Origin: an uncultured bacterium
GTDB lineage: Bacteria; Abyssobacteria; SURF-5
Assembly (NCBI GenBank): GCA_964607485.1
Contig: CAZSKP010000004.1
Span: forward strand, 1-64,000
DNA: 64,000 nt
Direction: 5' to 3'
Each line of letters begins with the position of its first letter. Positions within the stretch are counted from its first letter, which is position 1. The position numbers and the translations under genes are program-made. This document shows positions 9,591-39,897 of the stretch, one piece after another. The notes beneath the pieces were generated by a model. The model did no database searches, was not told where the DNA came from, and saw only the letters and a program-made list of their open reading frames with translations.

Positions 9591-9598
9591 GCGTCTCT

Positions 9599-11510: not shown

Positions 11511-11541
11511 CATGAATGAGGCTCCGAGGCAGGTGTCTGGT

Positions 11542-11571: not shown

Positions 11572-11676
11572 TCAGCAAGAGTTTCGTCTTGTGCTTACTC
11601 GTTGATACGAGCGTTGTTATCCTGAAACCAATGAGTGCGTACGTCGCTTGCATCTCGGACCAAATACGCCGGCCCC

Positions 11677-13131: not shown

Positions 13132-13156
13132 CCGTTTGCACACCGGAGAGTCCGAA

Positions 13157-14140: not shown

Positions 14141-14150
14141 GCTCCGTCCG

Positions 14151-15353
14151 CTATGCTCTCATGCCCAACGCCGCCGCGAAGCACGCCTGGATTTGTTCGC
14201 TCTGTCTCTCCAACGTGAACAGTTTCTCCACGCGCCGCCGTCCCTCTTTCCCCATTTCCAAAGCGTGCTGAGGTTCCGAGAGCAGGCTGTCCAGCGCCCG
14301 GGCGAACTGCTCTTCGTCGAGGGGATGGGTGAGGACCCCCGTCTTTCCGTCTTCTACTATTTCCGGAATGCCGCCGTTGTTGAACGCGACGACCGGTCTT
14401 TCGGAGGCCATCGCTTCGATGATGGCCAGGCCGAACGGTTCCGGCTTGGTCGAGGTGTGCGCCAGAATATCGAGCGCGCGCATCACCTGTGGCACGTCGT
14501 CGCGATGTCCCAGGAACACCACTCTGTCCTGCAGGCTCCTTTCTTCCACAATCCGGCGGAGCTCCTTCTCATAATCAGGCTCCTCCCAGAAAAGGCCTCC
14601 GACCACGACGTACCGGGCGTCGCCTTTCACACGGGATGCGGCGCGCAGAAAAAAATCCTGCCCTTTCCACCGCATCAGTCGTGCGACATGGCCGACAACG
14701 GGGACATCGGGGTCCAACCCCAACTGTTTCTTGGCCTCCCGCACGGGCATGGGCGGATAGTTCCCCGGGTCGATGCCGTTGTGGATGGTGTGGACTTTTC
14801 CGTACGGCACCCCGATGTTTACGAGTGAATCGGTCACGGCCTTTGATATCGACACGATCGAGTGGACTCCGTGCCGCAGGGCCCATTTTAGCGTGAGCAG
14901 CATGGGAAAGTTGAACGCATCGGGATTGCAGATGTCGTGCATGTGATGCGCCACGACGGCTTTTGTGCCCGATGCCGCCAGCGCCGCCAACACACATGAC
15001 TTGAGGGAATTGGTGTAGATGAGGTCGATGCTTTCCTGCGTGAGCCGGCGGCGTATCTGTCTCGCGAGGGAGACGAATTCGCCCGAACTCTTGAGCATGT
15101 ACCGAACGGCGTCCAGATTGGAGGACTCCTGAATGATGTTGGTGGAGGTGGTCGCGGGGTTGACCCGAAGCGGAAGCAGGCGGATTCCCATCGATTCGAT
15201 TTGCTCGGCGAGCGTGCCGCCGGGAACGCATGTTACCGTGACCTCGAATCGCTCGCGGTCGAACGTGGGCAGAAGCCTCAGAAGCACGACCTCTCCGCCC
15301 CCGGCCAGGTCCTGATGATGATCAACAATCAACACCCGCCCTGGTGAACTCAC
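14151..15353 (-). CDS. Glycosyltransferase family 4
   Basis: GGGE, HNGID, ARL..WKG, EPFGLAIIEAM (Ex7E). Confidence 0.9.
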   Translation of the reverse strand: MSSPGRVLIVDHHQDLAGGGEVVLLRLLPTFDRERFEVTVTCVPGGTLAEQIESMGIRLLPLRVNPATTSTNIIQESSNLDAVRYMLKSSGEFVSLARQIRRRLTQESIDLIYTNSLKSCVLAALAASGTKAVVAHHMHDICNPDAFNFPMLLTLKWALRHGVHSIVSISKAVTDSLVNIGVPYGKVHTIHNGIDPGNYPPMPVREAKKQLGLDPDVPVVGHVARLMRWKGQDFFLRAASRVKGDARYVVVGGLFWEEPDYEKELRRIVEERSLQDRVVFLGHRDDVPQVMRALDILAHTSTKPEPFGLAIIEAMASERPVVAFNNGGIPEIVEDGKTGVLTHPLDEEQFARALDSLLSEPQHALEMGKEGRRRVEKLFTLERQSEQIQACFAAALGMRA

Positions 15354-17866: not shown

Positions 17867-17885
17867 TTCTTGCCGCGTCTTCCTG

Positions 17886-19004
17886 TCATTTCAAGTATTT
17901 GTTGAAGAAGCTCTCTGTTGTCTCAAAAGCCGATTCGCCTTCGTCGCCGGAATGAAAGATGAACCCATGAGGGGCGCCGTTATATGTCTTGAGAGAAACC
18001 TTCTTCTTTTTCTTTTTCAACGCTTCATACAGGCTGACGGATTCCGAATAGGGAACTACCTTGTCGCTCTTGCCGTGAATGAGCAGCACAGGCGTATTGA
18101 TTTTATCCACGTTATCGATAGGCGAGAGCGCCCGTGCTTTGGAGAAGTCGGGATTGTCGGGGTCACCGATAACGGGAGACCATGTCGCTATCTTCTTTCG
18201 GGCGATGGGGTCATCGGACTTCTTCCAATCTTCAAGCAGCGTCCGGAAATCATACCCTCCGAAATTCAGGTTTGCGGCGGAAAGCAGCGAGGAACGAGTC
18301 AGCACGTTAGCGCCGATAAACGCTCCGTGGCTGGAACCCATGAGGCCGACCTTGGTCGTCGTAGGAAGTCCGTGGGCATACTGGACGGCTTTGACAACAT
18401 CGTCGATTTCCTTCCCCGCCGGATCGGCGGCGTCTCTGTAGTTCTCTCCGTGGCCGCTGCTTCCCCGATAATCGATGGCCAGGGTGCCGAAGCCGGCTTT
18501 CAGGAACCTGAACGCGTGCCGCTCATAGGAAGCGGCCGACCCATGTTCGCCACCATGAACCAGGACTATGATCGGGAATCTCTTTTGGTCCTTGGGCTCG
18601 CTCAAATAGCCATACACCTTGAATCCGTCCGTACTCTTGAAGCTGACTTCCTTCCAGAACTCGGCATCGTACGCCTTGCCGACGGCATCCATCAGCGCCC
18701 TGTCGGCCGCCTCGAAGTCTCCCGCCTTAGCCGACTGCTCGATTCTCTCAACATATGGCCGGAGAGCGCCCGTATCCTTTCCGTCTTTCTTTATTTCTTT
18801 CACCACAAATTTCATCTTCCTGGCGAGCCGATTCGCCTCGGGATTCGGGCTCTCCTCCAGGTTTTCAACCACCGCCTGAAGCCGCCCTCTTCCCGGAACC
18901 CTCGCGCGAGGGGTCTCACCCTGGGCCGGGGCTTTACACATGACCATCAGAAAAAGGAAACACAGGGAAAGCAGGGGAGCAGAAGAAAAAGTTCTTTTCA
19001 TCAT
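17886..19004 (-). CDS. Exported alpha/beta hydrolase (S9 peptidase/esterase-like)
   Basis: Signal peptide; VHGG, DYRGSSG.G, GSSHG nucleophile, HGKSD, PHGF. Confidence 0.85.
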   Translation of the reverse strand: MMKRTFSSAPLLSLCFLFLMVMCKAPAQGETPRARVPGRGRLQAVVENLEESPNPEANRLARKMKFVVKEIKKDGKDTGALRPYVERIEQSAKAGDFEAADRALMDAVGKAYDAEFWKEVSFKSTDGFKVYGYLSEPKDQKRFPIIVLVHGGEHGSAASYERHAFRFLKAGFGTLAIDYRGSSGHGENYRDAADPAGKEIDDVVKAVQYAHGLPTTTKVGLMGSSHGAFIGANVLTRSSLLSAANLNFGGYDFRTLLEDWKKSDDPIARKKIATWSPVIGDPDNPDFSKARALSPIDNVDKINTPVLLIHGKSDKVVPYSESVSLYEALKKKKKKVSLKTYNGAPHGFIFHSGDEGESAFETTESFFNKYLK

Positions 19005-27100: not shown

Positions 27101-28030
27101 TCACCTCAGCTTCTTCTCATACCATACCAACTCCGTCTTCGGTTTGAATCCGGTTTTTTCGTAAAGCGAACACGCTGGCTCGTTTTCGCGGTCAACGGTC
27201 AGTTCGACGGTTTGAATGCCTTTGCTCGCCAGGTGTTTCAAACCAGCCCATAAGACTTGTCTTCCTACGCCCCGACGCCGAAACTCCGGCGCCACGCCCA
27301 TCATGTGTATCCGGCCAATCGCCGCGCCGTTCCTCCGTTCCGGCCGGCGTACCTCAGCGGTCCAGCAGTAGCCGACAGCCTTTTCTCCGTGATAGGCCAA
27401 TATGACGCCGTCATGACCGTAGCCACGCGTGTTCAACTGCTGAATGATCTCACGCGTCGTATTCGGACAGAAACCCCAGGAGCCTCCGAACACATGGTTC
27501 TGAAGCCGTGTGAATTCCGCCTCCCCGCCGGCTTTCAGATGACGCAGGGACAGGCCGTCATGCTTTTCAGCAATCGAGACAGGTTCGAGCTCCAGCGTCA
27601 TTTCGGTGTATCGGCGAACCGGCCTGAATCCGAGATCGGCGAACAGATTGCGGGCGGCCCGGTTCTCTTCTCTTAGGTCAGCATGCGCCTTTGCCGCCTT
27701 GAGTTCGCGGGCTCTCTCAAGCGCGGAACGGAGCAGCCCGGCCGCCGTTCCCCGGCCGAGATAACCGGGCATGACCAACAGCCTCAGAACGACTCGGCCA
27801 ATGGCCATTTCCGGAACGACCCGGCACGCGCCAACAATTCTTCCTCCTTCCTCGGCCAGAAACAGATCCTTTTCGGAGAAATCTACGGGTTCGAGCGACT
27901 CACTCGTCAGCGAAGCGAGCAAGAACGTATCTGCGGACTGGCAGACTGATTCGCCCTCGGCATGCAGTCGGACATATTCGTCCAAATCGGCGGGACAATA
28001 GTTTCTTATGACGCAGGAATCGATTCCCAT
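27101..28030 (-). CDS. Tandem-GNAT acetyltransferase, MshD (mycothiol synthase)-like
   Basis: Two GNAT repeats (YLGRG..N.AARNLF..LGF; GRIHMMGVAPEFRRRGVG..VELTVDREN.PA..LYEKTGF). Confidence 0.75.
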   Translation of the reverse strand: MGIDSCVIRNYCPADLDEYVRLHAEGESVCQSADTFLLASLTSESLEPVDFSEKDLFLAEEGGRIVGACRVVPEMAIGRVVLRLLVMPGYLGRGTAAGLLRSALERARELKAAKAHADLREENRAARNLFADLGFRPVRRYTEMTLELEPVSIAEKHDGLSLRHLKAGGEAEFTRLQNHVFGGSWGFCPNTTREIIQQLNTRGYGHDGVILAYHGEKAVGYCWTAEVRRPERRNGAAIGRIHMMGVAPEFRRRGVGRQVLWAGLKHLASKGIQTVELTVDRENEPACSLYEKTGFKPKTELVWYEKKLR

Positions 28031-28061
28031 TGGGGCTGCTACGGGCGCTGGGGCGGTGTGT

Positions 28062-28856
28062 CTAGTCCAACTTCACAACCCGCTCGCCGGCTTTCGGGCC
28101 ATCCGTCGGTGGACCGGCAAAGCACTGTGCCTTCAGCATCCAGTCGCGGGCCGTGTCACCGACGACTTCGAGCCGCGTGTCGTCCACATGCCGCCTTTGC
28201 GCTACGACCAGGCAGAAATCTTCGGCGGGGCCGCTTATCTTTTCCGAGGCATCCTCCGGTCCCCATGTCCAGACGGTTCCCGAAGGAGCGGTGAGTTCCA
28301 CGCGCACCTGTGTTTGGGGAACCTCAAGGCCGCGGTTTGTGTAGCTCCAGCCGAACGTGGTCACGCCGAGGTGGGCGATGTGGCGCAGGCGGTCGGTATT
28401 CGTGCGCTTCAATCGGAGGGCGTCAAACACGTCCTGGCCGTGAGCCCAGGTCTCCATCAGCCGCGCCGTCGCGTGAGACAGAGCGCTCATGGGCGGACCA
28501 TACCAGGGCAGCCGGTCTTTCTTGCCGAGGGCTGCGTAGGCCTCCAGCATCTTTTTCCGTTCTCTCCGCCACCAGCTCATCAATTCTTCTATCGACATAT
28601 TCTTGCCGACGTCGTCAAGCATTTTGATGAACTTGCTGAGGTCGCTCATTACTTCCTGAAGGTGCTTGCCGAACGCATCCGCATCGGAGGCTGCAAGCGC
28701 GGCCCTATCGTCGAAATACGCCAGATGACGCACCTGGTCTTTAATGTTCCATCCCGGCGAAGGCGTCATGAGCATCCATTTCTCTTCGGCCAGGTCGGCC
28801 AGAACGGCCTCCAGGGCGTCATGTTCAGCTCTCAAATCCTCACAGATTTGTTTCAT
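28062..28856 (-). CDS. TIGR03084-like metal-binding protein (DinB/mycothiol-dependent maleylpyruvate isomerase superfamily)
   Basis: TPSPGW.IKDQV.HLA.FD, PWYGPPMS, ARLMETWAHGQD, RHIAHLGV, AQCFAGPP. Confidence 0.85.
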   Translation of the reverse strand: MKQICEDLRAEHDALEAVLADLAEEKWMLMTPSPGWNIKDQVRHLAYFDDRAALAASDADAFGKHLQEVMSDLSKFIKMLDDVGKNMSIEELMSWWRRERKKMLEAYAALGKKDRLPWYGPPMSALSHATARLMETWAHGQDVFDALRLKRTNTDRLRHIAHLGVTTFGWSYTNRGLEVPQTQVRVELTAPSGTVWTWGPEDASEKISGPAEDFCLVVAQRRHVDDTRLEVVGDTARDWMLKAQCFAGPPTDGPKAGERVVKLD

Positions 28857-28879
28857 CGCTGTCCTCTCTCTATCTGGGC

Positions 28880-29584
28880 TTAGTAACGAACCTCCACCCG
28901 ATGAAAAGCCTCGGCGAGTTCAAACGATTCCCCCTCCGCCATTTCCCGATTGCGCCGCCTGAGCCACTCCATCCATTCCGCCGGCTCGAACTGGCCGACC
29001 TGGCTCTTGTGACAACGAAGGGCGGCGACCTTCAATTCAAATGTGTCCGAAATGTCGGAGCGATAGTCTATTTCATCGGCGCCCCAGAACAGCATCTCCT
29101 TGACCTTATGCGGTTCCAGCCCCTCCTTCAACAGGTCAGGGTATGCCAGGTGGTCTCTGGCGAACGGAAAGACTGCGTCCAAAACGACCTGTCCGGTGAT
29201 CCTGTGGTCGCGGTGCCAGAGATACCGCCGATATGGGTCCGTGGTCACGACCACTTCCGGCCGGTATCTTCTGATTTCTCGCACCAGATCCTTGCGAAAT
29301 TCAGGCGTATCTTCCAAGCTTTGATCCGGGTATCGCAGGAACACGACCTCACCTACCCCCAGCACCTGCGCGGCTTCTCTCTGCTCGGCTTCACGGATTT
29401 TGGCCAATGTCTCCGGCTTCATGTCTCGGTCGCCGGTGCCCTTGCTGCCATCCGTGCAGATGACGTACACGACTTCTTTTGATTCGCGTATCCATCGAGC
29501 TACCGTGCCGGCAGCGCCTAATTCCGCATCATCCGGATGCGGGCTCACGACCATGGCATAGAACGGGGGATCCGGATTCGACAT
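28880..29584 (-). CDS. PIG-L/LmbE-family N-deacetylase (MshB/BshB-like)
   Basis: PHPDDAE, TDG.KG, R..E...A...LG, HRDH, HKSQ, AEAF. Confidence 0.9.
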   Translation of the reverse strand: MSNPDPPFYAMVVSPHPDDAELGAAGTVARWIRESKEVVYVICTDGSKGTGDRDMKPETLAKIREAEQREAAQVLGVGEVVFLRYPDQSLEDTPEFRKDLVREIRRYRPEVVVTTDPYRRYLWHRDHRITGQVVLDAVFPFARDHLAYPDLLKEGLEPHKVKEMLFWGADEIDYRSDISDTFELKVAALRCHKSQVGQFEPAEWMEWLRRRNREMAEGESFELAEAFHRVEVRY

Positions 29585-29596
29585 GGCGGTTCCTTG

Positions 29597-30751
29597 TCAA
29601 CCTGCCTTTATGTTTTCCGGCATCTGGCGGGTCAGGATATCCACCGTTTCTTCAACCATTTCCTCGAGCACCTGTCGGGCCGGTTTGATTTCCTTGATGA
29701 GTCCCGAAACCTGGCCGGAAAAAGGAGCCACGTAATCCAGTTGCTTGCCTTTGAGAAACATCTCGACAAGGCCCGAAGCCAGCGTGACCTGCGTGGGAAA
29801 CGGCAACGGCTCAAGACCGGACTGCTCCCAAAGGTCGTGGAACTTGTTGTAGATCGCTCTCGATGTCTTTCCCGTGTAAAGGTAAGTCCGGCGGGTGTCC
29901 TCATCCGTGGCATCGACGATGCGTTGCTTTTGAATGTCCAGGATTCCGCCCTCTTCGGTAGCCAGAAAGCGCGTGCCTACCCACACACCCAGACAGCCCA
30001 TCGCCAAAGCCGCCGCTACGCCGCGCCCGTCGCCGATGCCGCCGGCAGCCAAGACGGGCACGGGCGTTGCCGCGTCGATCGCCTGTGGAAGCAGCGCCAG
30101 AGTCCCTATGCGACCCGTGTGCCCGCCTCCCTCGTATCCTTGAGCGACGACGAGATCCACGCCGGACTGTGCAATGCGCCTCACGTTCTTTACGTTGCCT
30201 GCGATGCCCAGCACCTTCATGCCGTTGGCATGGGCCTCTTCCACCATGAAGCCCGGATTGCCGAGCCCGGAGCAGAACAGGGGAACCTTTTCCTCGATGC
30301 AAGCCTTCACGGCTTTAATGGGCTGCATGGTCGTCGTATCCATCCTCACCATGGTGTCAATGTCGGGAAGCTGCATTTCCGCTTTGACCTTCTGGACCCA
30401 CTCGTAGTAAGGCTTGGGAAGGGATTTCAGTATTTCGTTGAGGGGCATTTGTTTTGGGCCTTGAATATCTGTGTCGCCCAGCTCCACAAGCTGTTTGGGC
30501 AGGAGCAAGTCCACTCCGAAAGGTTTGTCGGTTCCGCTCCTGATTTCCTGAATGGCCTCCCGCATTTCCTCGATCGTGTAGCCGGCAGCTCCCAGCACTC
30601 CGAGTCCCCCCGCCTCGGATACCGCCACCACGAGGTCCACCGGGGCGCCCGTGCTCTCGCCGATAAGGGACGGCCCCATGCCCGCACTGAGAATCGGATA
30701 CTCGATGCCGAGCATGTCACAGAGTTTTGTCCGCAAGATTGGTCTGCTCAT
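29597..30751 (-). CDS. Nitronate monooxygenase/FabK-like FMN oxidoreductase
   Basis: GIEYPI..AGM, AVSEAGGLG, QGYEGGGH, AAGGIGDGRG, GTRFLAT.E; start re-placed at MSRPIL. Confidence 0.88.
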   Translation of the reverse strand: MSRPILRTKLCDMLGIEYPILSAGMGPSLIGESTGAPVDLVVAVSEAGGLGVLGAAGYTIEEMREAIQEIRSGTDKPFGVDLLLPKQLVELGDTDIQGPKQMPLNEILKSLPKPYYEWVQKVKAEMQLPDIDTMVRMDTTTMQPIKAVKACIEEKVPLFCSGLGNPGFMVEEAHANGMKVLGIAGNVKNVRRIAQSGVDLVVAQGYEGGGHTGRIGTLALLPQAIDAATPVPVLAAGGIGDGRGVAAALAMGCLGVWVGTRFLATEEGGILDIQKQRIVDATDEDTRRTYLYTGKTSRAIYNKFHDLWEQSGLEPLPFPTQVTLASGLVEMFLKGKQLDYVAPFSGQVSGLIKEIKPARQVLEEMVEETVDILTRQMPENIKAG

Positions 30752-30782
30752 ATTTCTCTCCTTGGCTCGTGTCACCTCTTTA

Positions 30783-32072
30783 TTAACATTTCGTCTCACT
30801 GCGGTTGTGCAAACCCGCTATCATCAGAGCACCCTCTCGCTCCATCAATCGCTTGTATTCAGCGACCAGGGCATCGGCCACGCTGTCCCAGGTGAACCGC
30901 GTCACCGCCTTGCGGATTTCGCTCGGCACGCTCTTCCCGTCCCCTCGGTCGGACAGGAGCTCCGCGATTTTTTCCGCGAGCAAGTCGGAGCGAGCATCGG
31001 TCACCAAACGACCCGTCGGGCCGTCATTCAGAACGTGCGGATGAATACCCACTTCCGTTGCCACCACCGGTGTGCCGCAGGCCAACGATTCCAGCCCGAC
31101 CATCCCGAAACTTTCGTAGTGCGACGGGAGCACAAGAACGTCGGCCGCGCTGTAGTAGAACGGCAATTCCTCTTGTGGCAGGCTGCCGGTAAAGATGACG
31201 GATTCCTCGATGCCCAACGTTCGAACCATGTCCTGCAACCGTTTCTGTTCGCCATTCGGCGAATCGTCGCCGCCGACAACCAATAGCTTGAAATGGAGGC
31301 GGCCCTTTAGGAGAGCGGCGGCGGCGAGCAGCCTGTCGATGCCCTTGATGGGGTCCATCCGGCTGACGCATAGCAGGATGGCTTCGCCGTTCGCGAGGCC
31401 GATTCTTCTTCGGGCCTCCTCTTGGTCTATGGGTTGGAATCTGTCGAGGTTCACCCCGCCGTGAATCACGGTGACCTTGGTCGAGTCGGCGCCATAGAAC
31501 TCGATCAGTTGCTGTTTTTCTCTTTCGGTTGGAGCGATGATGAGATCGCAATCCTCGACCAACTCCCTTTCACGAAGCAGGCGAAGTTCATGTTCGGCGG
31601 GCTTGGGCGAAAAGGCATTCTTGGCCGCACCGGTGGTGTGGAACATGATGACATGGGGCACGCACCAGTTTTCCCGAGCCCAGCGCCCCGCGCAGCCGGA
31701 CAGCCAGTAGTGACTGTGCACCACGTCGTACCTGAGGCCGGCCTCGCTTCGGAAGGCTTCCATGCCCTCGATGAATTCTTCGATATAAGGATAAAGGGCG
31801 AGCCTGGACAGATATCGGCCGTCTCCGGCCTTGATGTGGATGAGCCGAACATTCTCGCCAATCGTGAGGGCGCCCTGCTGTTCGGAACTGCGAGCGCGGG
31901 TGTAGATGTCGACCGCGTATCCTCGTTTTCCCAGTTCGCGGGCCGCCTCGCGGATATACGTGCTCATGCCGCCGGTGTCCGTCGTTCCCAATCGGCCCAG
32001 GGGATAGCTGTGGAAACACAACATCGCGACAGTGAGGCTTCCAGCTTCCATCGATGTGTTGTTTCCCGCCAC
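30783..32072 (-). CDS. GT4 glycosyltransferase, MshA (D-inositol-3-phosphate GlcNAc transferase)-like
   Basis: HSYPLGRLGTTDTGGMSTY, HSHYWLSG, FHT, R.DP.KG, ESFGMVGLE..ACGTPVV. Confidence 0.8.
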   Translation of the reverse strand: MAGNNTSMEAGSLTVAMLCFHSYPLGRLGTTDTGGMSTYIREAARELGKRGYAVDIYTRARSSEQQGALTIGENVRLIHIKAGDGRYLSRLALYPYIEEFIEGMEAFRSEAGLRYDVVHSHYWLSGCAGRWARENWCVPHVIMFHTTGAAKNAFSPKPAEHELRLLRERELVEDCDLIIAPTEREKQQLIEFYGADSTKVTVIHGGVNLDRFQPIDQEEARRRIGLANGEAILLCVSRMDPIKGIDRLLAAAALLKGRLHFKLLVVGGDDSPNGEQKRLQDMVRTLGIEESVIFTGSLPQEELPFYYSAADVLVLPSHYESFGMVGLESLACGTPVVATEVGIHPHVLNDGPTGRLVTDARSDLLAEKIAELLSDRGDGKSVPSEIRKAVTRFTWDSVADALVAEYKRLMEREGALMIAGLHNRSETKC

Positions 32073-32104
32073 GTTCGCTCCTCACCCGACTTTCGATACG
32101 TGAT

Positions 32105-33094
32105 TTACCTGAGGACGACCCGGCATCTCGACAGGCGCACTTCCTTGCCGCCCAGGTGGTACTTGTACGGCTCCGCGCCTTTCAGGAAATCGTACTTCTT
32201 CCGGCCGATCTCGATGCTGTGCTTGACGCTGAGAATCTTGCAGACCAACCCGACGCTCAACGAACTGAATCGCGGAGCGTATCCGCTGTTGTAGAGATAC
32301 ATCGTGTCCCGGTAATCGAAACAGACGGCCGCCGCGGCAGTTGTATTATTCAATCTGAGGAGAAAGAGTCGAAGAATGCCTTCGTCGGACATGGCCCGCA
32401 TCATCGACCGGAAAAACGACTCCGTCCGAGGATTCATAAAGATCGCCTTATCCGGCCGGCTCTCACGAAACATCTTCAGGAAAGAATCCAACTGCTCGCC
32501 AATTTCCCCGGCGTCATCGAGGACAATGAAACGTACCTCGGCCTCCTCGTCGAGTCTTCTCAATTTGCGCCTGATTTCGTGCCGCTGTTTTCCGTCCAAC
32601 ATTTCAAGGTATCCGTTCCAGTCGCCGGGCAACTCCATTTCCACCGACACCTCATCCGGCTCGATGGAGCATGCTCCGCCCCGATTCCGGGCTGCTTCCA
32701 CCAGGTGGGAGAGCACCGTCGATTCCGGCCGCAGACACCGAAGGTCAAGTTCCGTTACACGCCGCTTCGACAGATCGTCGAGAAGCGCGTTGTAGAATTC
32801 CTCTTCATATCCGGGCGCCACGGCGAAATCCATGTAATCGCAGACCTCCGCATCGCCCACAAAAGAGGCCGCCGCGCCCGTGATGGACAGCGGGGCGACG
32901 CCGATAGGTCTTTCGTCAATCTTAATCAAACATATATAGAGTTCGTCATCCGGCTTGAACGCCTGCCTCCATGCCTGCATCCAACGCGGCAGCATGAAAA
33001 CGTGCCGCCCCTGTTGGAGGTCTTCAAAACTGGCCGCGCAAGCGTCGATGGTGTCAAAGCTCTCTAAAGCGGCCGCGCTCGTCACCGCCTTCAA
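32105..33094 (-). CDS. CelD/BcsL-like (Acetyltransf_6) GNAT-fold protein
   Basis: CDYMDF, RHEIRRKLRRL, YLYNSGY, YDFLKGAEPYKY; TTG start overlaps biotin carboxylase stop. Confidence 0.8.
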   Translation of the reverse strand: MKAVTSAAALESFDTIDACAASFEDLQQGRHVFMLPRWMQAWRQAFKPDDELYICLIKIDERPIGVAPLSITGAAASFVGDAEVCDYMDFAVAPGYEEEFYNALLDDLSKRRVTELDLRCLRPESTVLSHLVEAARNRGGACSIEPDEVSVEMELPGDWNGYLEMLDGKQRHEIRRKLRRLDEEAEVRFIVLDDAGEIGEQLDSFLKMFRESRPDKAIFMNPRTESFFRSMMRAMSDEGILRLFLLRLNNTTAAAAVCFDYRDTMYLYNSGYAPRFSSLSVGLVCKILSVKHSIEIGRKKYDFLKGAEPYKYHLGGKEVRLSRCRVVLR

Positions 33095-34458
33095 TCCTCA
33101 TCCTCGTCGTCGTCCTCGTCCGGAACGAACTTCTTGATATATCCGGTGTGGATATCTCCCTGCTGGAACGCCGGGTCATCGACTATCCTCAGATATAGGG
33201 GGATGGTCGTCTTTATCGGCTGAATCACAAACTCCTGCAAGGCTTTCTTCAGGACGCGGATGGCGCCGTCTCTGGTCGCGTCGTGCGCGATGAGCTTGGC
33301 CACAAGCGAGTCATAATATATCGGCAGCTCGTAGCCCTCGTAGAGGTGGGTGTCCAGCCTCACCCCCGGACCGCCGGGAGGTTTGTATTCCTTAATGACC
33401 CCCGGCGAGGGCGCGAAATTGAAGTCGGGATTCTCGGCGTTAATCCGGCACTCGATGGCCCAGCCGTTGAGATTGATGTCGTCGAAGCCGTATTCGAGTT
33501 TGCCGCCGTCGGCGAGCCGGATTTGTTCCTTGACGAGGTCCACGCCCGTGACCATCTCCGTGACGGGGTGTTCCACCTGGATGCGAGCGTTGACCTCCAT
33601 GAAGTAAAAGTTGCCCTCCCGGTCAAGCAGGAATTCAACCGTGCCTGCATTGAAGTAGTTCAAGGCCTTGGCTGCGTCAATGGCGGCCCGGCCCATGGTT
33701 TTTCGCAGTTCCGGTGTCATGGCCGATGACGGCGCTTCTTCGATCAATTTCTGATAGCGCCGCTGAATCGAGCATTCCCGTTCTCCCAGGTGGATGACGT
33801 TGCCGAGTTTGTCGGCCAGAACCTGGAACTCAATGTGCCTCGGGTCCACCAGGCATTTTTCAATATATAACGAGTCGTCGCCGAAGGCCGCTTTCACTTC
33901 CGCCCGGGCCACGGCGAACTCTTCCCTCAGAACCTCTTCATCCGGGCAGATGCGAATGCCGCGGCCGCCGCCGCCGGCCGCCGCCTTGACCATTACCGGA
34001 TAGCCTATCTCAGAAGCGAGGGCGACTGCCTCATCTATTGAGCCCACTCCATTCCGGCTCGAAGGAACGATGGGCACCCCGGCCTGCCTGATGAGCGTCT
34101 TGGCCTTGATCTTATCGCCGGCGAGAGCCAGGTTTTCCGGAGTCGGACCGACGAAGACCAGGCCGGCGTCGTTACATGCACGGGCAAAGCCACCGTTTTC
34201 GGCCAGATAGCCGTAGCCGGGATGGACGGCCTCGGCGCCTGTTTTTTTTGCCGCCTCGATGATGGCCTCGATGTTCAGATAGCTCTTGGCGCTCATCGGC
34301 GGGCCGATGCAGACGCTCTCGTCGGCGCGGCGAACGTGGAGACTGCGCTCATCGGCCTCGGAATAGACTGCCACGCTTCTTATGCCGAGGTCTTTGGTCG
34401 CGCGTATGACCCTCAGCGCGATCTCGCCTCTGTTGGCTATCAGTATCTTCGAAAACAT
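33091..34458 (-). CDS. accC: Biotin carboxylase subunit
   Basis: KILIANRGEIA, HPGYGYLAEN, GGGGRG, RECSIQRR, EVNARIQVEH, ECRINAE, YYDSLVAK. Confidence 0.95.
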   Translation of the reverse strand: MFSKILIANRGEIALRVIRATKDLGIRSVAVYSEADERSLHVRRADESVCIGPPMSAKSYLNIEAIIEAAKKTGAEAVHPGYGYLAENGGFARACNDAGLVFVGPTPENLALAGDKIKAKTLIRQAGVPIVPSSRNGVGSIDEAVALASEIGYPVMVKAAAGGGGRGIRICPDEEVLREEFAVARAEVKAAFGDDSLYIEKCLVDPRHIEFQVLADKLGNVIHLGERECSIQRRYQKLIEEAPSSAMTPELRKTMGRAAIDAAKALNYFNAGTVEFLLDREGNFYFMEVNARIQVEHPVTEMVTGVDLVKEQIRLADGGKLEYGFDDINLNGWAIECRINAENPDFNFAPSPGVIKEYKPPGGPGVRLDTHLYEGYELPIYYDSLVAKLIAHDATRDGAIRVLKKALQEFVIQPIKTTIPLYLRIVDDPAFQQGDIHTGYIKKFVPDEDDDEDED

Positions 34459-34504
34459 CGCTTCCTACCCTTGTGGGATTTCACATCCCGACAGGGAATA
34501 AGGC

Positions 34505-34753
34505 CTATTCGGTTTCGATAATAAACATCAAATCCTCGTCCTTAAGCGGGGTCTCATTCTCAGCTACAATCTCGACGACCTTGCCTGCCGTCGGTGACTT
34601 GATCTTCTGGAAAACCTTCATCGTTTCCAGCAGGGCAAGAATCTGCTTCTTTTTGACCGTATCGCCCACCTCGACGTATGGCGGCTGATCGGGAGCCGGC
34701 TTTCTGTAAAACACTCCAGACATGGGCGCTCGCACTTCGATCTTTTTGCTCAT
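34505..34753 (-). CDS. Stand-alone biotin carboxyl carrier protein
   Basis: APMSGVFYR.P.P, GD.V, ETMK biotinylation motif (usual EAMK). Confidence 0.92.
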   Translation of the reverse strand: MSKKIEVRAPMSGVFYRKPAPDQPPYVEVGDTVKKKQILALLETMKVFQKIKSPTAGKVVEIVAENETPLKDEDLMFIIETE

Positions 34754-34809
34754 TCCTCATTTGCTCCTGAACGAATCTGGGGTTGGTTTTCAGTTAAAAT
34801 GGGGCGTTA

Positions 34810-35595
34810 CTAGCGTCCCTTCCACACGGGGTCGCGCTTCTCCATGAAGGCGGCTATGCCCTCCATCAGGTCCTCCACCTGCGTGTTGACGGTCAATTGT
34901 GAATGGAGGTAGCTCAGAGCGTCCTCCATGGCCATGTCCGCTATCTGGTAGAAGGACGACTTGCCAAGTCCCATGACGGCCGGACTGTACGACGAGAGCT
35001 TCTTGGCCATCTCGGAAACCTTCTCATGGAACGAGTCCTTGGACACGCAATAGTTAATCAAGCCGATGCGCTCCGCTTCGGCCGCGGGGATACGGTCTCC
35101 GGTCATGCACAGCTCGGCCGCTTTCTTGCGGCCCACGTTGCGGATGAGCACGGCCGTGACCATGTAGGGCCAAAGCCCGCGCTTTATCTCCGGCAGGCCG
35201 AACTGGGCGTCCTCCCTGGCCACGGCAACGTCGCTGGACAGGCAGAGCCCCATGCCTCCGGCCAGGCAGTATCCTTCGATGGCCGCCAGGATCGGTTTTT
35301 TGCATTTATTCATCTTAACCAAGAGGTCGACATAATGGAGCCGGTCGTAGTGCATGTCGAGAAACGACTGCGCAGCGCCGAAGCTGCCGCCCAGGTCGGC
35401 GCCGGAGCAGAAATTGCTCCCCGCCCCGGTCAGGATGATTGCCGAAACGTCAGGGGCCGCCCCGGCCTGGTCGAAATATTGATTCAGGCCGGCCATGACG
35501 TTGGAGTTGATTGAATTGCGCCTTTCCGGCCGGTTGATGGTGATGGTGGCCACCTTGTCCTTGACGCTATAAAGAACCTCTTGGTTCTCGCTCAT
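34810..35595 (-). CDS. Enoyl-CoA hydratase/isomerase (methylglutaconyl-CoA hydratase-like)
   Basis: INRPERRNS, FCSGADL, AGGMGL, FGLPE, F.EKRDP.W; start re-placed at MSENQEV. Confidence 0.9.
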   Translation of the reverse strand: MSENQEVLYSVKDKVATITINRPERRNSINSNVMAGLNQYFDQAGAAPDVSAIILTGAGSNFCSGADLGGSFGAAQSFLDMHYDRLHYVDLLVKMNKCKKPILAAIEGYCLAGGMGLCLSSDVAVAREDAQFGLPEIKRGLWPYMVTAVLIRNVGRKKAAELCMTGDRIPAAEAERIGLINYCVSKDSFHEKVSEMAKKLSSYSPAVMGLGKSSFYQIADMAMEDALSYLHSQLTVNTQVEDLMEGIAAFMEKRDPVWKGR

Positions 35596-35621
35596 GGTCG
35601 TCCCTCCTCGTTCGTGGCGTG

Positions 35622-36488
35622 TTATTTCTTGAGCCCCAGGATTCGGCGCGCTTCCTCGGCAGTGGCGATCTCCCGACCCACCTCGCGCGTGATCTTGGCC
35701 AGGGCCTCGACCAACTCCCCGTTGCTTTGGGCCTTCTCGCCGCTGGGCAGGTAGAACGTGTCTTCCAACCCGGTGCGTACGTTGCCGCCTTCTTCCAGCG
35801 CCTTTCGCTGGAGGTCCCAGACTTCCTTCCGGCCGACGCAGATTACCTGCCAGTGGGTACCGGGCAGCATCTCCTTCTTGAGGAGCGGCACCCATTCGGG
35901 TTTCGCTGGCTGGCCGCTTGCCACGCCCATGACCAGCGAGATGTGCGGGTCGCCCTCGAACATCCCGGCCTTCTTGTACAACGCCACACTGCGCACGATG
36001 CCCGAATCGAAGCACTCGAACTCGGGGACGACGTCGTTGGCCGTCATCACGTCGAGGAATGCCTGGACCTTCTCCACCGGGTTATCGAACGTCATCGGCG
36101 GCCAGGCCCAAGTGCCGTCTCCCTTGAGCTTGAGGTAGTTCAAAGACCCGGCGTTGCATGCGGCCATCTCGGGCTTGATCGCCTCCAGGCAGGCCACCGG
36201 CCCGGAAATGTCGGGACCGACCACGCCGGTGCTCTGGTTAATGATGATGCCCGGCACCCGCTCTCTGATGGCGTCGATAATCGACCTGACGACGCCGACG
36301 TCCCACGTGGGATATGCGCCCATGCCCGGATTCTGATCGCGGAAATGGCAGTGCACGATGGAGGCGCCCTGATTCCAGGCCTGCTCCGCGGCGTCGGCCA
36401 TCTGCTCGGGTGTGACGGGGATATTCCCCATATTCGGATTGGTCAGAACGCCGGTAAGGGCGCACGTCAGTATGGCTTTGTCGCTCAT
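35622..36488 (-). CDS. Beta-keto acid cleavage enzyme (3-keto-5-aminohexanoate cleavage, DUF849 family)
   Basis: ILTCALTG, PVTPEQ, GASIVHCHFR (HxH), PEFECFD, G.VRTGLED; start re-placed at MSDKAIL. Confidence 0.9.
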   Translation of the reverse strand: MSDKAILTCALTGVLTNPNMGNIPVTPEQMADAAEQAWNQGASIVHCHFRDQNPGMGAYPTWDVGVVRSIIDAIRERVPGIIINQSTGVVGPDISGPVACLEAIKPEMAACNAGSLNYLKLKGDGTWAWPPMTFDNPVEKVQAFLDVMTANDVVPEFECFDSGIVRSVALYKKAGMFEGDPHISLVMGVASGQPAKPEWVPLLKKEMLPGTHWQVICVGRKEVWDLQRKALEEGGNVRTGLEDTFYLPSGEKAQSNGELVEALAKITREVGREIATAEEARRILGLKK

Positions 36489-36543
36489 GCAATACCTCCT
36501 GTCATTTGATAAGGCTCGGCTGCGCGTCTGGTCGGGATGTCTA

Positions 36544-38100
36544 TCACGCGGGAGAAGTGCCGTGTTTCTTCGCTCTGCGCGGCAACTTCTCCGCCTTGTT
36601 CCTGGTAATATCCAGTGCTTCGATAATTTTCTTTCGGGTATCCTTTGGCTCGATGATCTCGTCAACCACCTGGGCGGTCCAGGAATGGGCCGCGTCGAAC
36701 ACGTCCACTTTTTCGCGGGACCGGTTCAGGTATACTTCATACGCGTCTTCTTCGATTCCTTTGCCATAAATCTCGTTGTATTTCAGCTCCGACGCCTCGA
36801 CGGCGAATCGGGCGATGGGCCAGGCATACGTCAGGTCCGCGCCGAGCCCTTTCACGCCGCTCATGACCATGCTGCCGGAATCGGCGTACGCCTCGCGCAG
36901 TACCACTCCGATTTTGGGGACCGTCGCCGTGGCGTACACATCGACAATCTTGCCGATATGCCGGAGCAGTCCCTTGGCTTCCTCTTCCTCGCCGGGAACG
37001 AGGGGCGGCGTGTCCACCAGGTTGACCAATGGCGTGCTGTAGGCCTCGAGGGTCTGCAGAAAGCGGTAATACTTGTCGCAGGCGTTGATTTCGTAAATGC
37101 TGCCCGGCTCGGCGGGATTATTGGCGACCAATCCGACCACCTCGCCGTTGAAGCGGCAGTATCCGGCGATGAGCTGCTTGGCGTATTCGTTCTTGATCTC
37201 GAAAAAGTCGCCGTCGTCAACCAGTTCCCGGATGACGTCGTGCATATCGTACTTACGATCGAATTCATCGGGCACGATATCGACCAGCTTTCCCACTTCG
37301 CGGCCGGCGTCGTCGGTCCGCTCCCAGGCGAGCGGTTTCTCGCGATAATTCGCCGGCAGGTACCGCAGCAATTCGCGGCAGGCCAGAATGGACTCCTTGT
37401 CGTCGTCGCCCACCACATCGCACGTTCCGCTCAACTGCATGTGATAGTCGGCGCCGCCCACGTTGCGGTCGATCTTTTCCGAGGTCGCCGCCGCGGTCTG
37501 GCGCGGGCCGCCCAGCCACAGGTTGCCGGAAATCCGGCTGATAAACAGGAAATCGCACAGCGTCGGAAGGTATGCGCCGCCGGCAATGCAGGGCCCCATC
37601 AGCACGGTAATCTGTGGAATCACGCCCGAATATATGGATTCGAGGTAAAACATCCAATCCACGCCGGCCATGGCCACGTCGCGGTATCCCAGGCGGCCGC
37701 CCGACGAATCGAGCAGGTTCACAAGCGGGATGCCCCATGCAGCCGCCATTTCGAGGACGCGGCAGTATTTCATGATATGCTGCTGGCCGATGGAGCCGCC
37801 AAGGACGGTGAAGTCGGAGGAATAAATCATGATGGTGCGGCCATGCACCTTGGCCGTGCCCACGACGGCGCCGTCGCAGGGCGCGTCGGTGAAGCGGCCG
37901 TCGATGCGGATGCCGGTGGTGTTCACACAGGAGCCCAGTTCGGCGAACGTGCCTTCATCAATGAGGACGTCGATCCTCTCCCGGGCGGTCAACTTGCCGC
38001 GGCCGTGTTGCCGCTCGATGTGCTTGATGCCGCCACCCAGCTTGTTCTTCTCCTGTATTTCACGATAGCGTTTGAGCGCTTCTTCCATTCGGTTTCCCAT
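36544..38100 (-). CDS. Acyl-CoA carboxylase carboxyltransferase (beta-like) subunit B
   Basis: QH.RGKLTARERI, DFTVLGGS, DSSGGR, GPCIAGGAY, DTP, DEIIEP..TR. Confidence 0.92.
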   Translation of the reverse strand: MGNRMEEALKRYREIQEKNKLGGGIKHIERQHGRGKLTARERIDVLIDEGTFAELGSCVNTTGIRIDGRFTDAPCDGAVVGTAKVHGRTIMIYSSDFTVLGGSIGQQHIMKYCRVLEMAAAWGIPLVNLLDSSGGRLGYRDVAMAGVDWMFYLESIYSGVIPQITVLMGPCIAGGAYLPTLCDFLFISRISGNLWLGGPRQTAAATSEKIDRNVGGADYHMQLSGTCDVVGDDDKESILACRELLRYLPANYREKPLAWERTDDAGREVGKLVDIVPDEFDRKYDMHDVIRELVDDGDFFEIKNEYAKQLIAGYCRFNGEVVGLVANNPAEPGSIYEINACDKYYRFLQTLEAYSTPLVNLVDTPPLVPGEEEEAKGLLRHIGKIVDVYATATVPKIGVVLREAYADSGSMVMSGVKGLGADLTYAWPIARFAVEASELKYNEIYGKGIEEDAYEVYLNRSREKVDVFDAAHSWTAQVVDEIIEPKDTRKKIIEALDITRNKAEKLPRRAKKHGTSPA

Positions 38101-38139
38101 ATTTCAATAACCCCCTGATTCGACCATTCGGTTTCCCAT
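38085..38139. repeat. 16-bp direct repeat duplicating the first codons of carboxyltransferase B
   Basis: CCATTCGGTTTCCCAT at 38085-38100 and 38124-38139. Confidence 0.85.
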
Positions 38140-38161
38140 GCTTCGAAAAACCCTGACACGA

Positions 38162-39712
38162 CTACGCGGGTTTGATGTAGCGTCTCTTCTCAGGCCTCTC
38201 TTCATGCTTGTTGGCCGATGCGTGGAGCGCCTTGATGATGCGCGAGCGAGTGTCCCTGGGGTCGATGACCTCATGGACGGTGTACCATGTCGTAAAGAGC
38301 TTGCCCATCGTCATGACACTGAACATTTCACGAAGAATGCCCACGTAGAAATTGAAGAGGTCATCGTAGTTGCCCGCTTCCTTGGCCTTTTCCAGTTCCT
38401 TATGGAACACGGCATGGACCATCATCTCCGGGCCTGTGGGGGCAAACTCGGTCGTGGGCCAGCCGTAAATGAAATCCGGCCCCATCTTGCTGCAGCCCAT
38501 GACGATATTGGAGCCGCCGTAGGATCGCCGCAGCACCATGGTGACCTTTTGTGTCGTCAGGTTGGTATAGCCGTGCAGGTTCTTGGCTCCGTGGCGGATA
38601 ACGCCCTTGCGCTCCCATCGGTCGCCGGGGGGAAAGGCCGTCGTGTCGGACATGGTCAGCAAGGGGATGTTGAAGCAGTCGAGAAACATCAGAAAGCGGT
38701 CATATTTATCGGACGAATCCGGTTCCATGATGCCGCTCAGCTCGTCCGGATTGTTGGCGGCGATGCCCGTGACCATGCCGTCGAATCGGGCGAAGCCAAT
38801 GACCATGTTGGGGGCAAAATCCTCCTGGAGTTCGAAAAATTCGCCGTTATCCACAATCAGGTCGATGATCTCGTGCATGTCGTAGGTGAACCGGACATTG
38901 TCGGGCATCACATTGAGCAGGGCCTCTTCACGCCGGTTGGGATCGTCGGTCGGCTCGATTGCCGCTGGCCGCTCCCAGCAGTTCTGAGGGATAAACTCGA
39001 GGACCTGTTTGCAGAGGTCGAGCGCCTTCTCGTCGCTCTCGGCCACGAGGTGGCACTGGCCGGATTGCGTCATATGGAAATCGGCCGAGCCCGCGTCCTC
39101 GGACTCGATCGGGCCGCCCAGCCACAAGAACCCCGTCTTGCTGTTCATGATCAGGAAATCCGACAGCACGGGCACCTTGGCCATCGGTCCGGTACACGGC
39201 CCCAGCACCAGCGCAATCTGGGGGATTACTCCGGAGTAGTAGCAATAATTCTTGAGCACACGGGCGATACCGTACTGTCCGACGTATCCCTTCTCCATGC
39301 TGACGCGGCTTCCGGCGGAATCGAAGATGCCGATAATCGGCATTTGTTCCTGCCCGGCCATTTGGACAAATTCGGCGATCTTCCATACGCCCTGATCGCC
39401 GAAGGAGCCGGACATCACCGTGAAATCCATCGAATAGACCATGACCGGCCGACCGCCCACCTTGATCATGCCCATGATCACGCCGTCCCCAGGGCTCGGT
39501 TTGGTGCTGGAATCCGGAAACGCTCGAAACTCCCGGACCAGCGAGCCGATTTCCTCAAAAGTGCCGGGGTCGGCCAGATATTCGATGCGCTCTCGCGCGG
39601 TGAGCTTGCCTAGGCTGTGCTGTACCTCGACGCGGTCCGGCCCGCCACCCGCGAGGTTTTCCTGCCGGATCGTCTCAAGCTTCGCAAGATAGCCGTCCAT
39701 CCATTCGCCCAT
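38162..39712 (-). CDS. Acyl-CoA carboxylase carboxyltransferase (beta-like) subunit A
   Basis: QHSLGKLTARERI, DFTVMSGS, SGVIPQI, RRSYGG, EVIDPRDTR; AAGGAG RBS, start 39712 or 39718. Confidence 0.92.
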   Translation of the reverse strand: MGEWMDGYLAKLETIRQENLAGGGPDRVEVQHSLGKLTARERIEYLADPGTFEEIGSLVREFRAFPDSSTKPSPGDGVIMGMIKVGGRPVMVYSMDFTVMSGSFGDQGVWKIAEFVQMAGQEQMPIIGIFDSAGSRVSMEKGYVGQYGIARVLKNYCYYSGVIPQIALVLGPCTGPMAKVPVLSDFLIMNSKTGFLWLGGPIESEDAGSADFHMTQSGQCHLVAESDEKALDLCKQVLEFIPQNCWERPAAIEPTDDPNRREEALLNVMPDNVRFTYDMHEIIDLIVDNGEFFELQEDFAPNMVIGFARFDGMVTGIAANNPDELSGIMEPDSSDKYDRFLMFLDCFNIPLLTMSDTTAFPPGDRWERKGVIRHGAKNLHGYTNLTTQKVTMVLRRSYGGSNIVMGCSKMGPDFIYGWPTTEFAPTGPEMMVHAVFHKELEKAKEAGNYDDLFNFYVGILREMFSVMTMGKLFTTWYTVHEVIDPRDTRSRIIKALHASANKHEERPEKRRYIKPA

Positions 39713-39897
39713 GCTCACTATCTCCTTTCGCTCAGTTTCAGCCCGTCCAGGCCGCATTCAAGCGCGGTCAGCGGCATCTCGTTGAGAAACCCGACCTGTT
39801 CGGGCAGTACGTACGGGTCAGGGATTCCACGGCATGACGGACGATGTCGGCATTGAGCGCCTCTTCGTCGTTGCCGTATTAGGGGCAGTCCCGAGCT

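Follow-up and report, generated by a model that had tools for sequence, protein, structure and literature searches.

The first 64,000 nucleotides of contig CAZSKP010000004.1 (NCBI GenBank assembly GCA_964607485.1, forward strand), from an uncultured bacterium assigned to SURF-5 in the Abyssobacteria, carry six minus-strand genes at positions 27101–33094 of that stretch, which as a whole we call the window. The cluster encodes an MshA-like GT4 glycosyltransferase, a PIG-L family deacetylase and an MshD-like tandem GNAT, and with them GNAT6, a double-GNAT protein of family PF13480. We propose, with a confidence somewhat short of even, that a widespread module of four enzymes, present here in full, would make a mycothiol-type N-acetyl-aminoacyl-glucosaminyl-inositol by drawing on an aminoacyl-tRNA. 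It is more doubtful that the product is a cysteine-containing thiol. Just as tentative is the fuller form of that idea, a cysteinyl-tRNA-dependent route to mycothiol or an AcCys-GlcN-inositol analogue that would be widespread outside the Actinobacteria, with a PF13480 ligase of FemX fold in place of MshC. Mycothiol is regarded as a hallmark of the Actinobacteria, and in the current view the synthesis of mycothiol and bacillithiol depends on ATP-dependent ligases that either resemble cysteinyl-tRNA synthetase (CysRS) or are of the BshC type.

The gene cluster

The six open reading frames (ORFs) are tightly packed, with intergenic gaps of -17 to +32 nt, and 27101–33094 therefore looks like a single operon. 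In the order of transcription, all on the minus strand, they encode GNAT6 (PF13480, Acetyltransf_6 / FemAB-like; 329 aa; 32105..33094), putatively an aminoacyl-tRNA-dependent transferase for the step that MshC would otherwise perform; the GT4 (429 aa; 30783..32072); an NMO/FabK-like FMN oxidoreductase (400 aa; 29597..30799); the metal-dependent PIG-L de-N-acetylase (234 aa; 28880..29584); a DinB/MDMPI_N metal-binding protein of family TIGR03084 (264 aa; 28062..28856); and the tandem GNAT (309 aa; 27101..28030). The initial annotation of this DNA had named the GT4, PIG-L, tandem GNAT and TIGR03084 genes, and these are indeed present, intact and co-directional. It was also right that the window holds no MshC or BshC gene, while the span it marked covers the GNAT6 and NMO genes as well, which it had left undescribed.

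Placed by hidden Markov model and PDB scores only, the GT4 has its best NCBIfam match in MshA (TIGR03449) at 332.3 bits, below the equivalog cut-off of 462.5. The runners-up are glgA_Coryne (134 bits), BshA (112 bits, cut-off 273.7) and the N-domain of sucrose-phosphate synthase (97 bits). Its best PDB matches are Corynebacterium glutamicum MshA (CgMshA; 3c48/3c4q, 242 bits) and then a cyanobacterial sucrose-phosphate synthase (6kih, 201 bits). Both MshA signature motifs quoted in the initial annotation, HSYPLGRLGTTDTGGMSTY and HSHYWLSG (residues 119–126), are found in the translation. In CgMshA the phosphate group of the acceptor is taken to be bound by K78, Y110, T134 and R154, whose counterparts in the window's GT4 are the conserved R90 (mostly K among the relatives), Y122, T146 and R164; sucrose-phosphate synthase likewise binds a phospho-acceptor. 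CgMshA R231, G263, G319 and E324, described as UDP-binding or acceptor-orienting in excerpts of PMC2628429, correspond to R238, G267, G323 and E328 of the window's GT4 and are invariant in 14 of 14 aligned sequences (alignment A1). The MshA cut-off is reached in none of the 151 Desulfobacterota and 151 Chloroflexota genomes that were sampled, where the best score is 417 bits.

The deacetylase belongs to PF02585 (121.9 bits, cut-off 28.2) and contains PHPDD at residues 15–19 and HRDH at residues 124–127, presumably the HPDD and HxDH metal-binding motifs of the PIG-L/LmbE family. Its NCBIfam scores all lie below the respective cut-offs, with BshB1 (TIGR04001) the best at 95.7 bits (cut-off 182.5), Mca (TIGR03446) at 64.8 (277.15) and MshB (TIGR03445) at 47.8 (224.35). 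In the PDB it is closest to an archaeal diacetylchitobiose deacetylase (8bgn, 133 bits), followed by LnmX, BshB (62 bits) and MshB (27 bits). For the tandem GNAT, MshD (TIGR03448) is the best of 21 families, at 100.5 bits against a cut-off of 163.1 (105.6 for the orthologue in locus L024), and MshD is also the best PDB match (2c27/1ozp, 46 bits, residues 60–292), in keeping with the resemblance first noted. PF00583 is matched in two stretches of this protein, giving two GNAT domains, and the acetyl-CoA motif (RRRGVG, 251–256) stands in the C-terminal one. By these scores the GT4, PIG-L and tandem GNAT are Msh-like, yet since they fall below the MshA, MshB and MshD cut-offs they do not belong to the Msh equivalogs.

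Conservation in other phyla

Synteny was surveyed by tblastn of the window proteins against 80 loci, those with the best-matching GT4 relatives in other genomes (36–50% identity). Many of these contigs end within 1–2 kb and the positive counts are lower bounds. The relatives come from the Desulfobacterota, Chloroflexota, Nitrospirota and Methylomirabilota, with none from the Actinobacteria. The host is not an actinobacterium either, and the suggestion that the gene set lies outside that phylum stands. GNAT6 is found immediately upstream of the GT4, in the same direction, in at least 59 of the 80 loci; PIG-L is downstream of the GT4 in at least 40 (45–70% identity), and the tandem GNAT adjoins GT4/PIG-L in at least 18.

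The association extends to whole genomes. Among the 151 Desulfobacterota the GT4 occurs in 22 and GNAT6 in 26, and GNAT6 is present in 20 of the 22 genomes with the GT4 versus 6 of the 129 without it. An MshA-like GT4, never above the MshA cut-off, is present in 112 of the 151 Chloroflexota genomes; this Chloroflexota tally includes G203 and G310, which are flagged as unpublished, and without them the count is 110 of 149. The association of GT4, PIG-L and the GNATs is beyond chance: together they are a genuine functional unit, conserved and akin to the enzymes of the Msh pathway. The TIGR03084 protein, which the initial annotation had counted with them, does not share this pattern, being absent from all 80 loci.

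Some loci show variants of the arrangement. Three in the Desulfobacterota (L159:5155-8535, L160:4801-8126 and L162:6848-10168) pair a divergent branch of GNAT6 with a distant GT4, whose match to the MshA model is weaker than E 1e-60, beside ino1. Two others in that phylum (L157:3076-6419 and L158:6719-8446, the latter with G098:C12:69485-70726) have a protein called S51-CysS_C, described below, then GNAT6, PIG-L and a carboxylesterase; their genomes lack an MshA-like GT4, and the arrangement resembles the partial clusters of the host's relatives. An MBL-fold gene follows PIG-L in at least eight of the 80 loci (L024:13025-13738, L027:12054-12692, L074:10772-11419 and five more), with glyoxalase II (hydroxyacylglutathione hydrolase) as its best NCBIfam match at 84–102 bits against a cut-off of 200. 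L064 holds a mycothiol-transferase-like DinB gene. Both of these neighbours are of thiol-related kinds and speak in favour of the proposal.

GNAT6, a candidate tRNA-dependent ligase

Which protein, then, would attach the amino acid? GNAT6 most likely fills the gap left by MshC. It matches PF13480 with 122 bits and FemAB_like PF04339 with 25.2, below the cut-off of 27, and it is not a member of FemAB PF02388. Sequence searches of the PDB gave nothing meaningful, either with the single sequence or with a 56-sequence profile. A structural model built from the 56-sequence alignment (predicted local distance difference test, pLDDT, 95.6; predicted template modelling score, pTM, 0.91) has a double-GNAT fold, and the solved structures nearest to it are those of Fem, MprF or Sbb17. 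Residues Y310-K311 (of 329) are an invariant aromatic-Lys pair near the C-terminus, and residues 169–180 are an invariant or near-invariant basic stretch (K, R, H) within model helix 168–184 at the start of the second domain.

According to passages of a 2026 review (PMC12945691), FemX relies on Lys305 for catalysis and binds tRNA through a positively charged helix of the second of its GNAT domains, and we infer from the model that K311 and the basic helix of GNAT6 may be their equivalents. The same passages report that Sbb17/Sba18 have been crystallised with the amino sugar streptothrisamine, and that streptothrisamine is converted by Orf11 using Gly-tRNA(Gly). The use of charged tRNAs by Fem/MprF-type ligases and the origin of MshC as a CysRS paralogue are described in excerpts of work by Aravind and co-workers (PMC2922099), in which the present gene system is not mentioned. 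On its predicted fold and conserved residues, GNAT6 looks like a tRNA-dependent transferase.

The host genome has two further PF13480 paralogues (G000:C12:78714-79682 and G000:C23:61873-62820, the latter at L114), which match the profile of GNAT6 with about 130 bits; the first sits amid glycosyltransferase genes. The family comprises 6355 representative clusters at E <= 1e-30 and may generally decorate amino sugars.

The acceptor and the proposed pathway

Inositol is a plausible acceptor for the GT4. There is a single ino1 in the host genome, and among the 11 species genomes of its phylum in our collection ino1 and the MshA-like GT4 each occur only once, in the same genome. In the Desulfobacterota ino1 is present in 21 of the 22 GT4 genomes versus 71 of the 129 others (p = 2e-4, uncorrected for relatedness). 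It abuts the GNAT6-GT4 pairs of L159, L160 and L162, and in L034 a distance of 1.4 kb separates it from the cluster.

The pathway that we propose would begin with the MshA-like GT4, which would join UDP-GlcNAc to ino1-made inositol phosphate to give GlcNAc-inositol-P. A phosphatase encoded elsewhere would remove the phosphate, and PIG-L would de-N-acetylate GlcNAc-X to GlcN-X. GNAT6 would then move an amino acid, possibly cysteine from Cys-tRNA(Cys), from its aminoacyl-tRNA to the glucosamine amine, replacing the ATP-dependent cysteine ligase MshC. Lastly, the MshD-like tandem GNAT would N-acetylate the added amino acid with acetyl-CoA. In the more tentative cysteinyl-tRNA form of the proposal, a protein with a CysRS anticodon-binding domain would in some phyla assist the PF13480 ligase.

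Proteins related to cysteinyl-tRNA synthetase

That protein, S51-CysS_C, is about 420 aa long and lies beside GNAT6 in at least nine of the 80 loci (L092:7664-8935, L027:4897-6150, L034:7501-8745, L031:2232-3482 and five more; alignment A3), with copies 47–76% identical. The C-terminal part of its profile matches the anticodon-binding region of four CysRS structures at E 7e-8 to 4e-5, the top matches being 8qhp (7e-8), 3tqo (4.5e-7) and 1li5/1u0b (2.6e-6). The N-terminal part matches the cyanophycinase-like S51 peptidase 6nqc (E 7.8e-7). Of the 19 genomes in the Desulfobacterota sample that have S51-CysS_C, 18 also carry the GT4 or GNAT6; of the 132 that lack it, 10 do.

Fusions of GNAT6 were also sought. 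None was found among longer proteins, a negative of little weight. Two proteins of ~810 aa considered as fusions of GNAT6 and S51-CysS_C proved to be tandem duplications of GNAT6, and a candidate GNAT6-GT4 fusion in L061 was rejected, the two genes being in different frames.

The carboxylase operon and the TIGR03084 protein

An acyl-CoA carboxylase set, recognised by family matches, lies immediately upstream of the cluster on the minus strand at 33091..39757, apparently in the same operon. It comprises genes for a biotin carboxylase (BC; 33091-34458), a BCCP (34505-34753), an enoyl-CoA hydratase (34810 to about 35600), a BKACE protein (35622-36665) and two carboxyltransferases (CT; 36544-38100 and 38162-39757). 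The BC stop codon overlaps the start of GNAT6 by 4 nt, and this gene order precedes GNAT6 in all six loci from the host's relatives. The conservation of this set between the host's phylum and the Desulfobacterota (L143, L145, L146) is unusually high, and TIGR03084 travels along with it in both groups.

The DinB-fold protein belongs to TIGR03084, at 348.4 bits against a cut-off of 247.95 over model positions 1–253 of 253, with MDMPI_N at 98 bits. A PDB search by sequence returned nothing at E <= 0.01, and the term TIGR03084 was not found in the full-text literature searched. Its nearest named homologues are from Candidatus Abyssobacteria, Hydrogenedentota and Desulfobacterales. The initial annotation had taken this protein as a member of the set and as a hint of a thiol, and this part of its interpretation is not supported. 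Within the host's phylum the 8 of 11 genomes with TIGR03084 are precisely those with GNAT6, because the genes are neighbours, and with its absence from the GT4 loci we rejected it as part of the conserved module. Among ten TIGR03084 loci of the Desulfobacterota, close homologues of the carboxylase genes adjoin it in three (BC 79–80% identical in L145 and L146, CT 68–74%, and BCCP). In two it has only hydratases as neighbours, and in two it is next to a distant PIG-L; neither GNAT6 nor the tandem GNAT adjoins it in any of the ten. By cross-phylum synteny TIGR03084 therefore belongs with the upstream carboxylase operon, and its position gives little support for a thiol product.

The NMO gene is a lineage-specific insert between GT4 and PIG-L. 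It is in the cluster in two of the four relatives whose loci reach past GNAT6 (L119, L120), and in other phyla it was found near the GT4 in only one of the 80 loci, ~5 kb away. The interleaving of NMO and TIGR03084 with the module is specific to the host's phylum, and by synteny both go with the upstream carboxylase genes. NMO itself matches PF03060 with 216 bits and FabK (TIGR03151) with 229, for which the cut-off is 453.

A functional link between TIGR03084 and the module may exist all the same. Genome-wide in the Desulfobacterota sample, TIGR03084 is enriched with GNAT6 (11 of 26 genomes versus 6 of 125). Maleylpyruvate isomerase is a mycothiol-dependent relative of this family, and by analogy the TIGR03084 protein may be an enzyme with the module's product as its cofactor; to read the enrichment in this way, on the model of maleylpyruvate isomerase and mycothiol, is speculation.

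The host genome

Does the host make mycothiol or another N-acyl-glucosaminyl cofactor, as the initial annotation supposed? Its genome (4.7 Mb in 93 contigs, 97.5% complete) has a bshA-bshB1-bshC operon at C13:99166-102570 on the minus strand, and all three products are above their cut-offs (460.3, 270.9 and 473.9 bits). BshC is matched in all 11 genomes of the phylum, in 10 of them above the cut-off, and the nearest Atlas clusters of the host's BshC are from Ignavibacteriota, Bacteroidota and Acidobacteriota. MshC (TIGR03447) was not found in the host genome. The best match to its model, at 289.4 bits against a cut-off of 485.1, is the genome's one CysRS, which lies on contig C16, and the remaining matches are <=25 bits. 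The genome search that the initial annotation had called for thus returned BshC and ino1, and neither MshC nor a second CysRS. By its gene content the host is a non-actinobacterium of the bacillithiol lineage. As its canonical bacillithiol operon is complete, the window cluster is a second system and not the sole source of a glucosaminyl thiol. The supposition keeps its support from a conserved Msh-related gene set and a plausible inositol acceptor, and loses some to the scores below the Msh cut-offs and to the bacillithiol operon that the host already has.

Weighing the proposal

Several observations weigh against the proposed tRNA-dependent pathway and are set out here together with the alternatives. 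The GT4, PIG-L and tandem GNAT are all under the Msh equivalog cut-offs, and among solved structures PIG-L has its closest relative in an archaeal diacetylchitobiose deacetylase, ahead of BshB and MshB. The case for tRNA dependence in GNAT6 is made by its predicted fold together with conserved residues that may correspond to those of FemX. In the Chloroflexota ino1 is near-universal (133 of 151 genomes), so that its presence in 102 of the 112 GT4 genomes versus 31 of the 39 others is not significant (p = 0.08), and ten GT4 genomes show no ino1; without G203 and G310 these figures are 131 of 149, and 100 of 110 versus 31 of 39. GTP cyclohydrolase I is encoded immediately upstream of GNAT6 in at least 19 of the 80 loci, all apparently in the Chloroflexota (L044, L050, L067, L075, L077 and L087 among them), and it abuts the GT4 itself in L081. 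This adjacency hints at other chemistry or a link to pterins, or is mere taxon-bound synteny.

GNAT6 could instead be an acyl-CoA-dependent N-acyltransferase, and the product a non-thiol N-acyl-glucosaminyl-inositol that serves as a solute or signal. We judge this unlikely, although it is the best of the alternatives. Here the acyl group might come from the neighbouring carboxylase, hydratase and BKACE genes, and the 4-nt overlap with BC and the six loci of relatives in which GNAT6 follows BC speak for such a link, as does a GNAT6-PIG-L pair near acyl-CoA dehydrogenase/hydratase genes in G060 and G098. The sole NCBIfam match of GNAT6, weak at 21.7 bits (31.3 in L024), is moreover to BspF, a GNAT that uses crotonyl-CoA, and it too counts against a tRNA-dependent enzyme. 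The carboxylase genes are, however, beside the GT4 in none of the 80 loci from other phyla, and their link to the cluster is lineage-specific. The acyl-CoA P-loop motif (Q/RxxGxG/A) was not found in the C-terminal domain of GNAT6, and tRNA-dependent enzymes score 5–7 Z units higher, with lower root-mean-square deviation, in comparison with the GNAT6 model. The module already has a separate classical acetyl-CoA GNAT, and the CysRS anticodon-domain partner suggests tRNA.

What remains of the case for cysteine in this host? S51-CysS_C is absent from the host genome, and cysteine as the added residue would therefore be only an extrapolation from other phyla to the window's module. In addition, an extra CysRS paralogue is present in four of the five cluster-bearing genomes from other phyla and could itself be the ligase. 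These paralogues are two fusions of a CysRS catalytic domain with GT2 in Dehalococcoidia (753 and 762 aa), a catalytic-only protein of 412 aa in the Nitrospirota, and a 778-aa protein in a deltaproteobacterial metagenome-assembled genome in which a PALP (cysteine-synthase-like) domain is fused to a full CysRS (L153:1819-4080, L154:1541-3829, L155:1991-3229 and L156:1012-3348). The pathway could accordingly be that of classical mycothiol synthesis, with cysteine added by an enzyme from outside the cluster, whether the host's BshC (473.9 bits) or a CysRS paralogue elsewhere, and with GNAT6 as an accessory that adds a second residue or acts in salvage. The MshC-like architecture of the 412-aa protein would fit this, as would the Msh enzymes (Bsh in the case of PIG-L) being the best NCBIfam matches and Msh also the best PDB match for the GT4 and the tandem GNAT. 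We nevertheless consider it improbable. The host has neither MshC nor a second CysRS; its BshC gene shares an operon with bshA and bshB1, and BshC is found throughout the phylum with or without the cluster; and BshC was found in none of the five carriers from other phyla. The CysRS paralogues vary in form and are all unlinked to the cluster, while no other gene accompanies the GT4 as constantly as GNAT6, in at least 59 of 80 loci and in 20 of 22 genomes.

A further objection to the proposed pathway comes from the host's own phylum, where the module is not kept whole. The GT4 occurs in only one of the 11 genomes and in none of five relatives by protein search, and a PIG-L orthologue in one relative only; GNAT6, TIGR03084 and the tandem GNAT are still adjacent in the loci of four relatives, at 57–86% identity. 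In relatives of the host's own family the clusters are partial, with the order BC-GNAT6-TIGR03084-tandem GNAT in G007 and G012 and BC-GNAT6-NMO-PIG-L-TIGR03084-tandem GNAT in G015, preceded in each by further genes. Neither GT4 nor PIG-L is present in G009 (L120), where the GNAT6 gene (G009:C72:9976-11099) is divided between two frames (profile positions 3–127 and 109–325), which indicates a frameshift or an assembly error. As GNAT6 and the tandem GNAT are kept without the GT4, they may not strictly rely on GT4/PIG-L and may have another amine as substrate, such as GlcN-malate of the bacillithiol pathway; the GT4-less copies either act on another amine or are decaying.

Is the window cluster itself then a decaying or mosaic remnant without a coherent product, brought together by insertion into a carboxylase operon? 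The loss of GT4, PIG-L and NMO in differing combinations among the relatives, the split gene of G009 and the interleaving of two modules would agree with this, and yet we think there is little chance of it. Each of the six genes of the cluster is full-length when compared with its model, GNAT6, GT4 and PIG-L are in the same order as in other phyla, ino1 is kept in this genome alone of its phylum, and a GT4 67% identical to that of the window is present on another metagenomic contig. Least probable of all is a membrane glycolipid like glycosylphosphatidylinositol (GPI), with the GT4 acting like PIG-A on phosphatidylinositol, PIG-L deacetylating and GNAT6 aminoacylating the lipid like MprF, for although GT4 and PIG-L are also the pair that initiates GPI synthesis and ino1 is frequent in the carriers, the GT4 matches soluble MshA (242 bits) far better than it does the phosphatidylinositol-using PimA/PimB' (46–58 bits), the six proteins lack hydrophobic stretches of the kind that form membrane helices (maximum 19-residue Kyte-Doolittle mean 1.64), and no recurrent lipid-synthesis genes were seen in the 15 loci scanned.

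Other genes in the window

The window also contains an exopolysaccharide locus at 117-19004, with genes for a Wzx-type flippase, a Wzy_C protein and a Wzc-like chain-length/tyrosine-kinase protein, two ~700-aa proteins of the PF01663 phosphodiesterase family, an HpnJ-like B12 radical-SAM enzyme, GT2 and GT4 glycosyltransferases and a PKD-domain protein. The initial annotation had taken the host for a diderm by a Wza locus; among the scanned window ORFs there are Wzx-, Wzy- and Wzc-type genes only, and no Wza (Poly_export) gene. No tRNA genes were found within the window.

Implications and comparison with known systems

Neither this gene set nor a FemX-type enzyme in cofactor synthesis was found described in the full-text literature searched. 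Should the tRNA-dependent pathway be real, inositol-glucosamine cofactors would extend to large uncultured groups and aminoacyl-tRNA would have a new role, in cofactor synthesis. It would also provide a first functional handle on the PF13480, S51-CysS_C and TIGR03084 families. Passages of a commentary (PMC6336425) state that unidentified thiols have been detected in Chloroflexus aurantiacus and several anaerobes, and the module would supply a gene set for testing the low-molecular-weight thiols of these organisms. If the route through cysteinyl-tRNA in particular were true, it would identify those long-unidentified thiols of Chloroflexus and anaerobes, and the TIGR03084 protein would be a cofactor-dependent enzyme of an acyl-CoA pathway. 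Should the product prove to be something other than a thiol, the gene set would nonetheless point to an N-acyl-glucosaminyl-inositol metabolite not described before.

How does the module compare with systems that are already known? With the two steps that open GPI synthesis (the GT4 PIG-A, then PIG-L) and with the GT4/PIG-L pairs of aminoglycoside pathways it shares the transfer of GlcNAc to inositol or a cyclitol followed by deacetylation. The window's GT4 is MshA-like, however, its proteins appear to be soluble, and no recurrent lipid or aminocyclitol genes are nearby. The solved FemABX-type transferases (FemX, FemA, the synthase domain of MprF, and Orf11/Sba18/Sbb17 of the BD-12 pathway) have no detectable sequence similarity to GNAT6, which is in PF13480 and not in PF02388, and whose context recurs across phyla and resembles primary metabolism rather than cell-wall or antibiotic clusters. 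The streptothricin-type BD-12 pathway is nonetheless a precedent for the acylation of an amino sugar by an enzyme of FemX type.

Bacillithiol synthesis (BshA, BshB, BshC) likewise proceeds from a GT4 that makes GlcNAc-X, through deacetylation by a PIG-L enzyme, to the placing of an amino acid on the amine. The window's GT4 and PIG-L are well below the bacillithiol cut-offs (112 bits versus 273.7 for BshA, 95.7 versus 182.5 for BshB1), the likely acceptor of the module is inositol phosphate and not malate, and only the module has an N-acetylating tandem GNAT. Closest is the synthesis of mycothiol by MshA, the MshA2 phosphatase, MshB, MshC and MshD. The module shares with it a GT4 nearest to MshA that keeps the UDP-binding and acceptor-orienting residues, a PIG-L-family deacetylase, a tandem GNAT nearest to MshD, a dependence on ino1 that is suggested by co-occurrence and, in the window, a DinB/MDMPI-like protein nearby. 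It differs in that the window proteins are below the Msh cut-offs, PIG-L is nearer to diacetylchitobiose deacetylase, MshC is missing and a PF13480 protein of FemX fold is the constant partner. The carriers differ as well, being Actinobacteria for mycothiol and, for the module, Chloroflexota, Desulfobacterota, Nitrospirota and the small phylum of the host. Seen at the level of its genes, the module appears to follow the logic of mycothiol and bacillithiol synthesis with a different predicted ligase.

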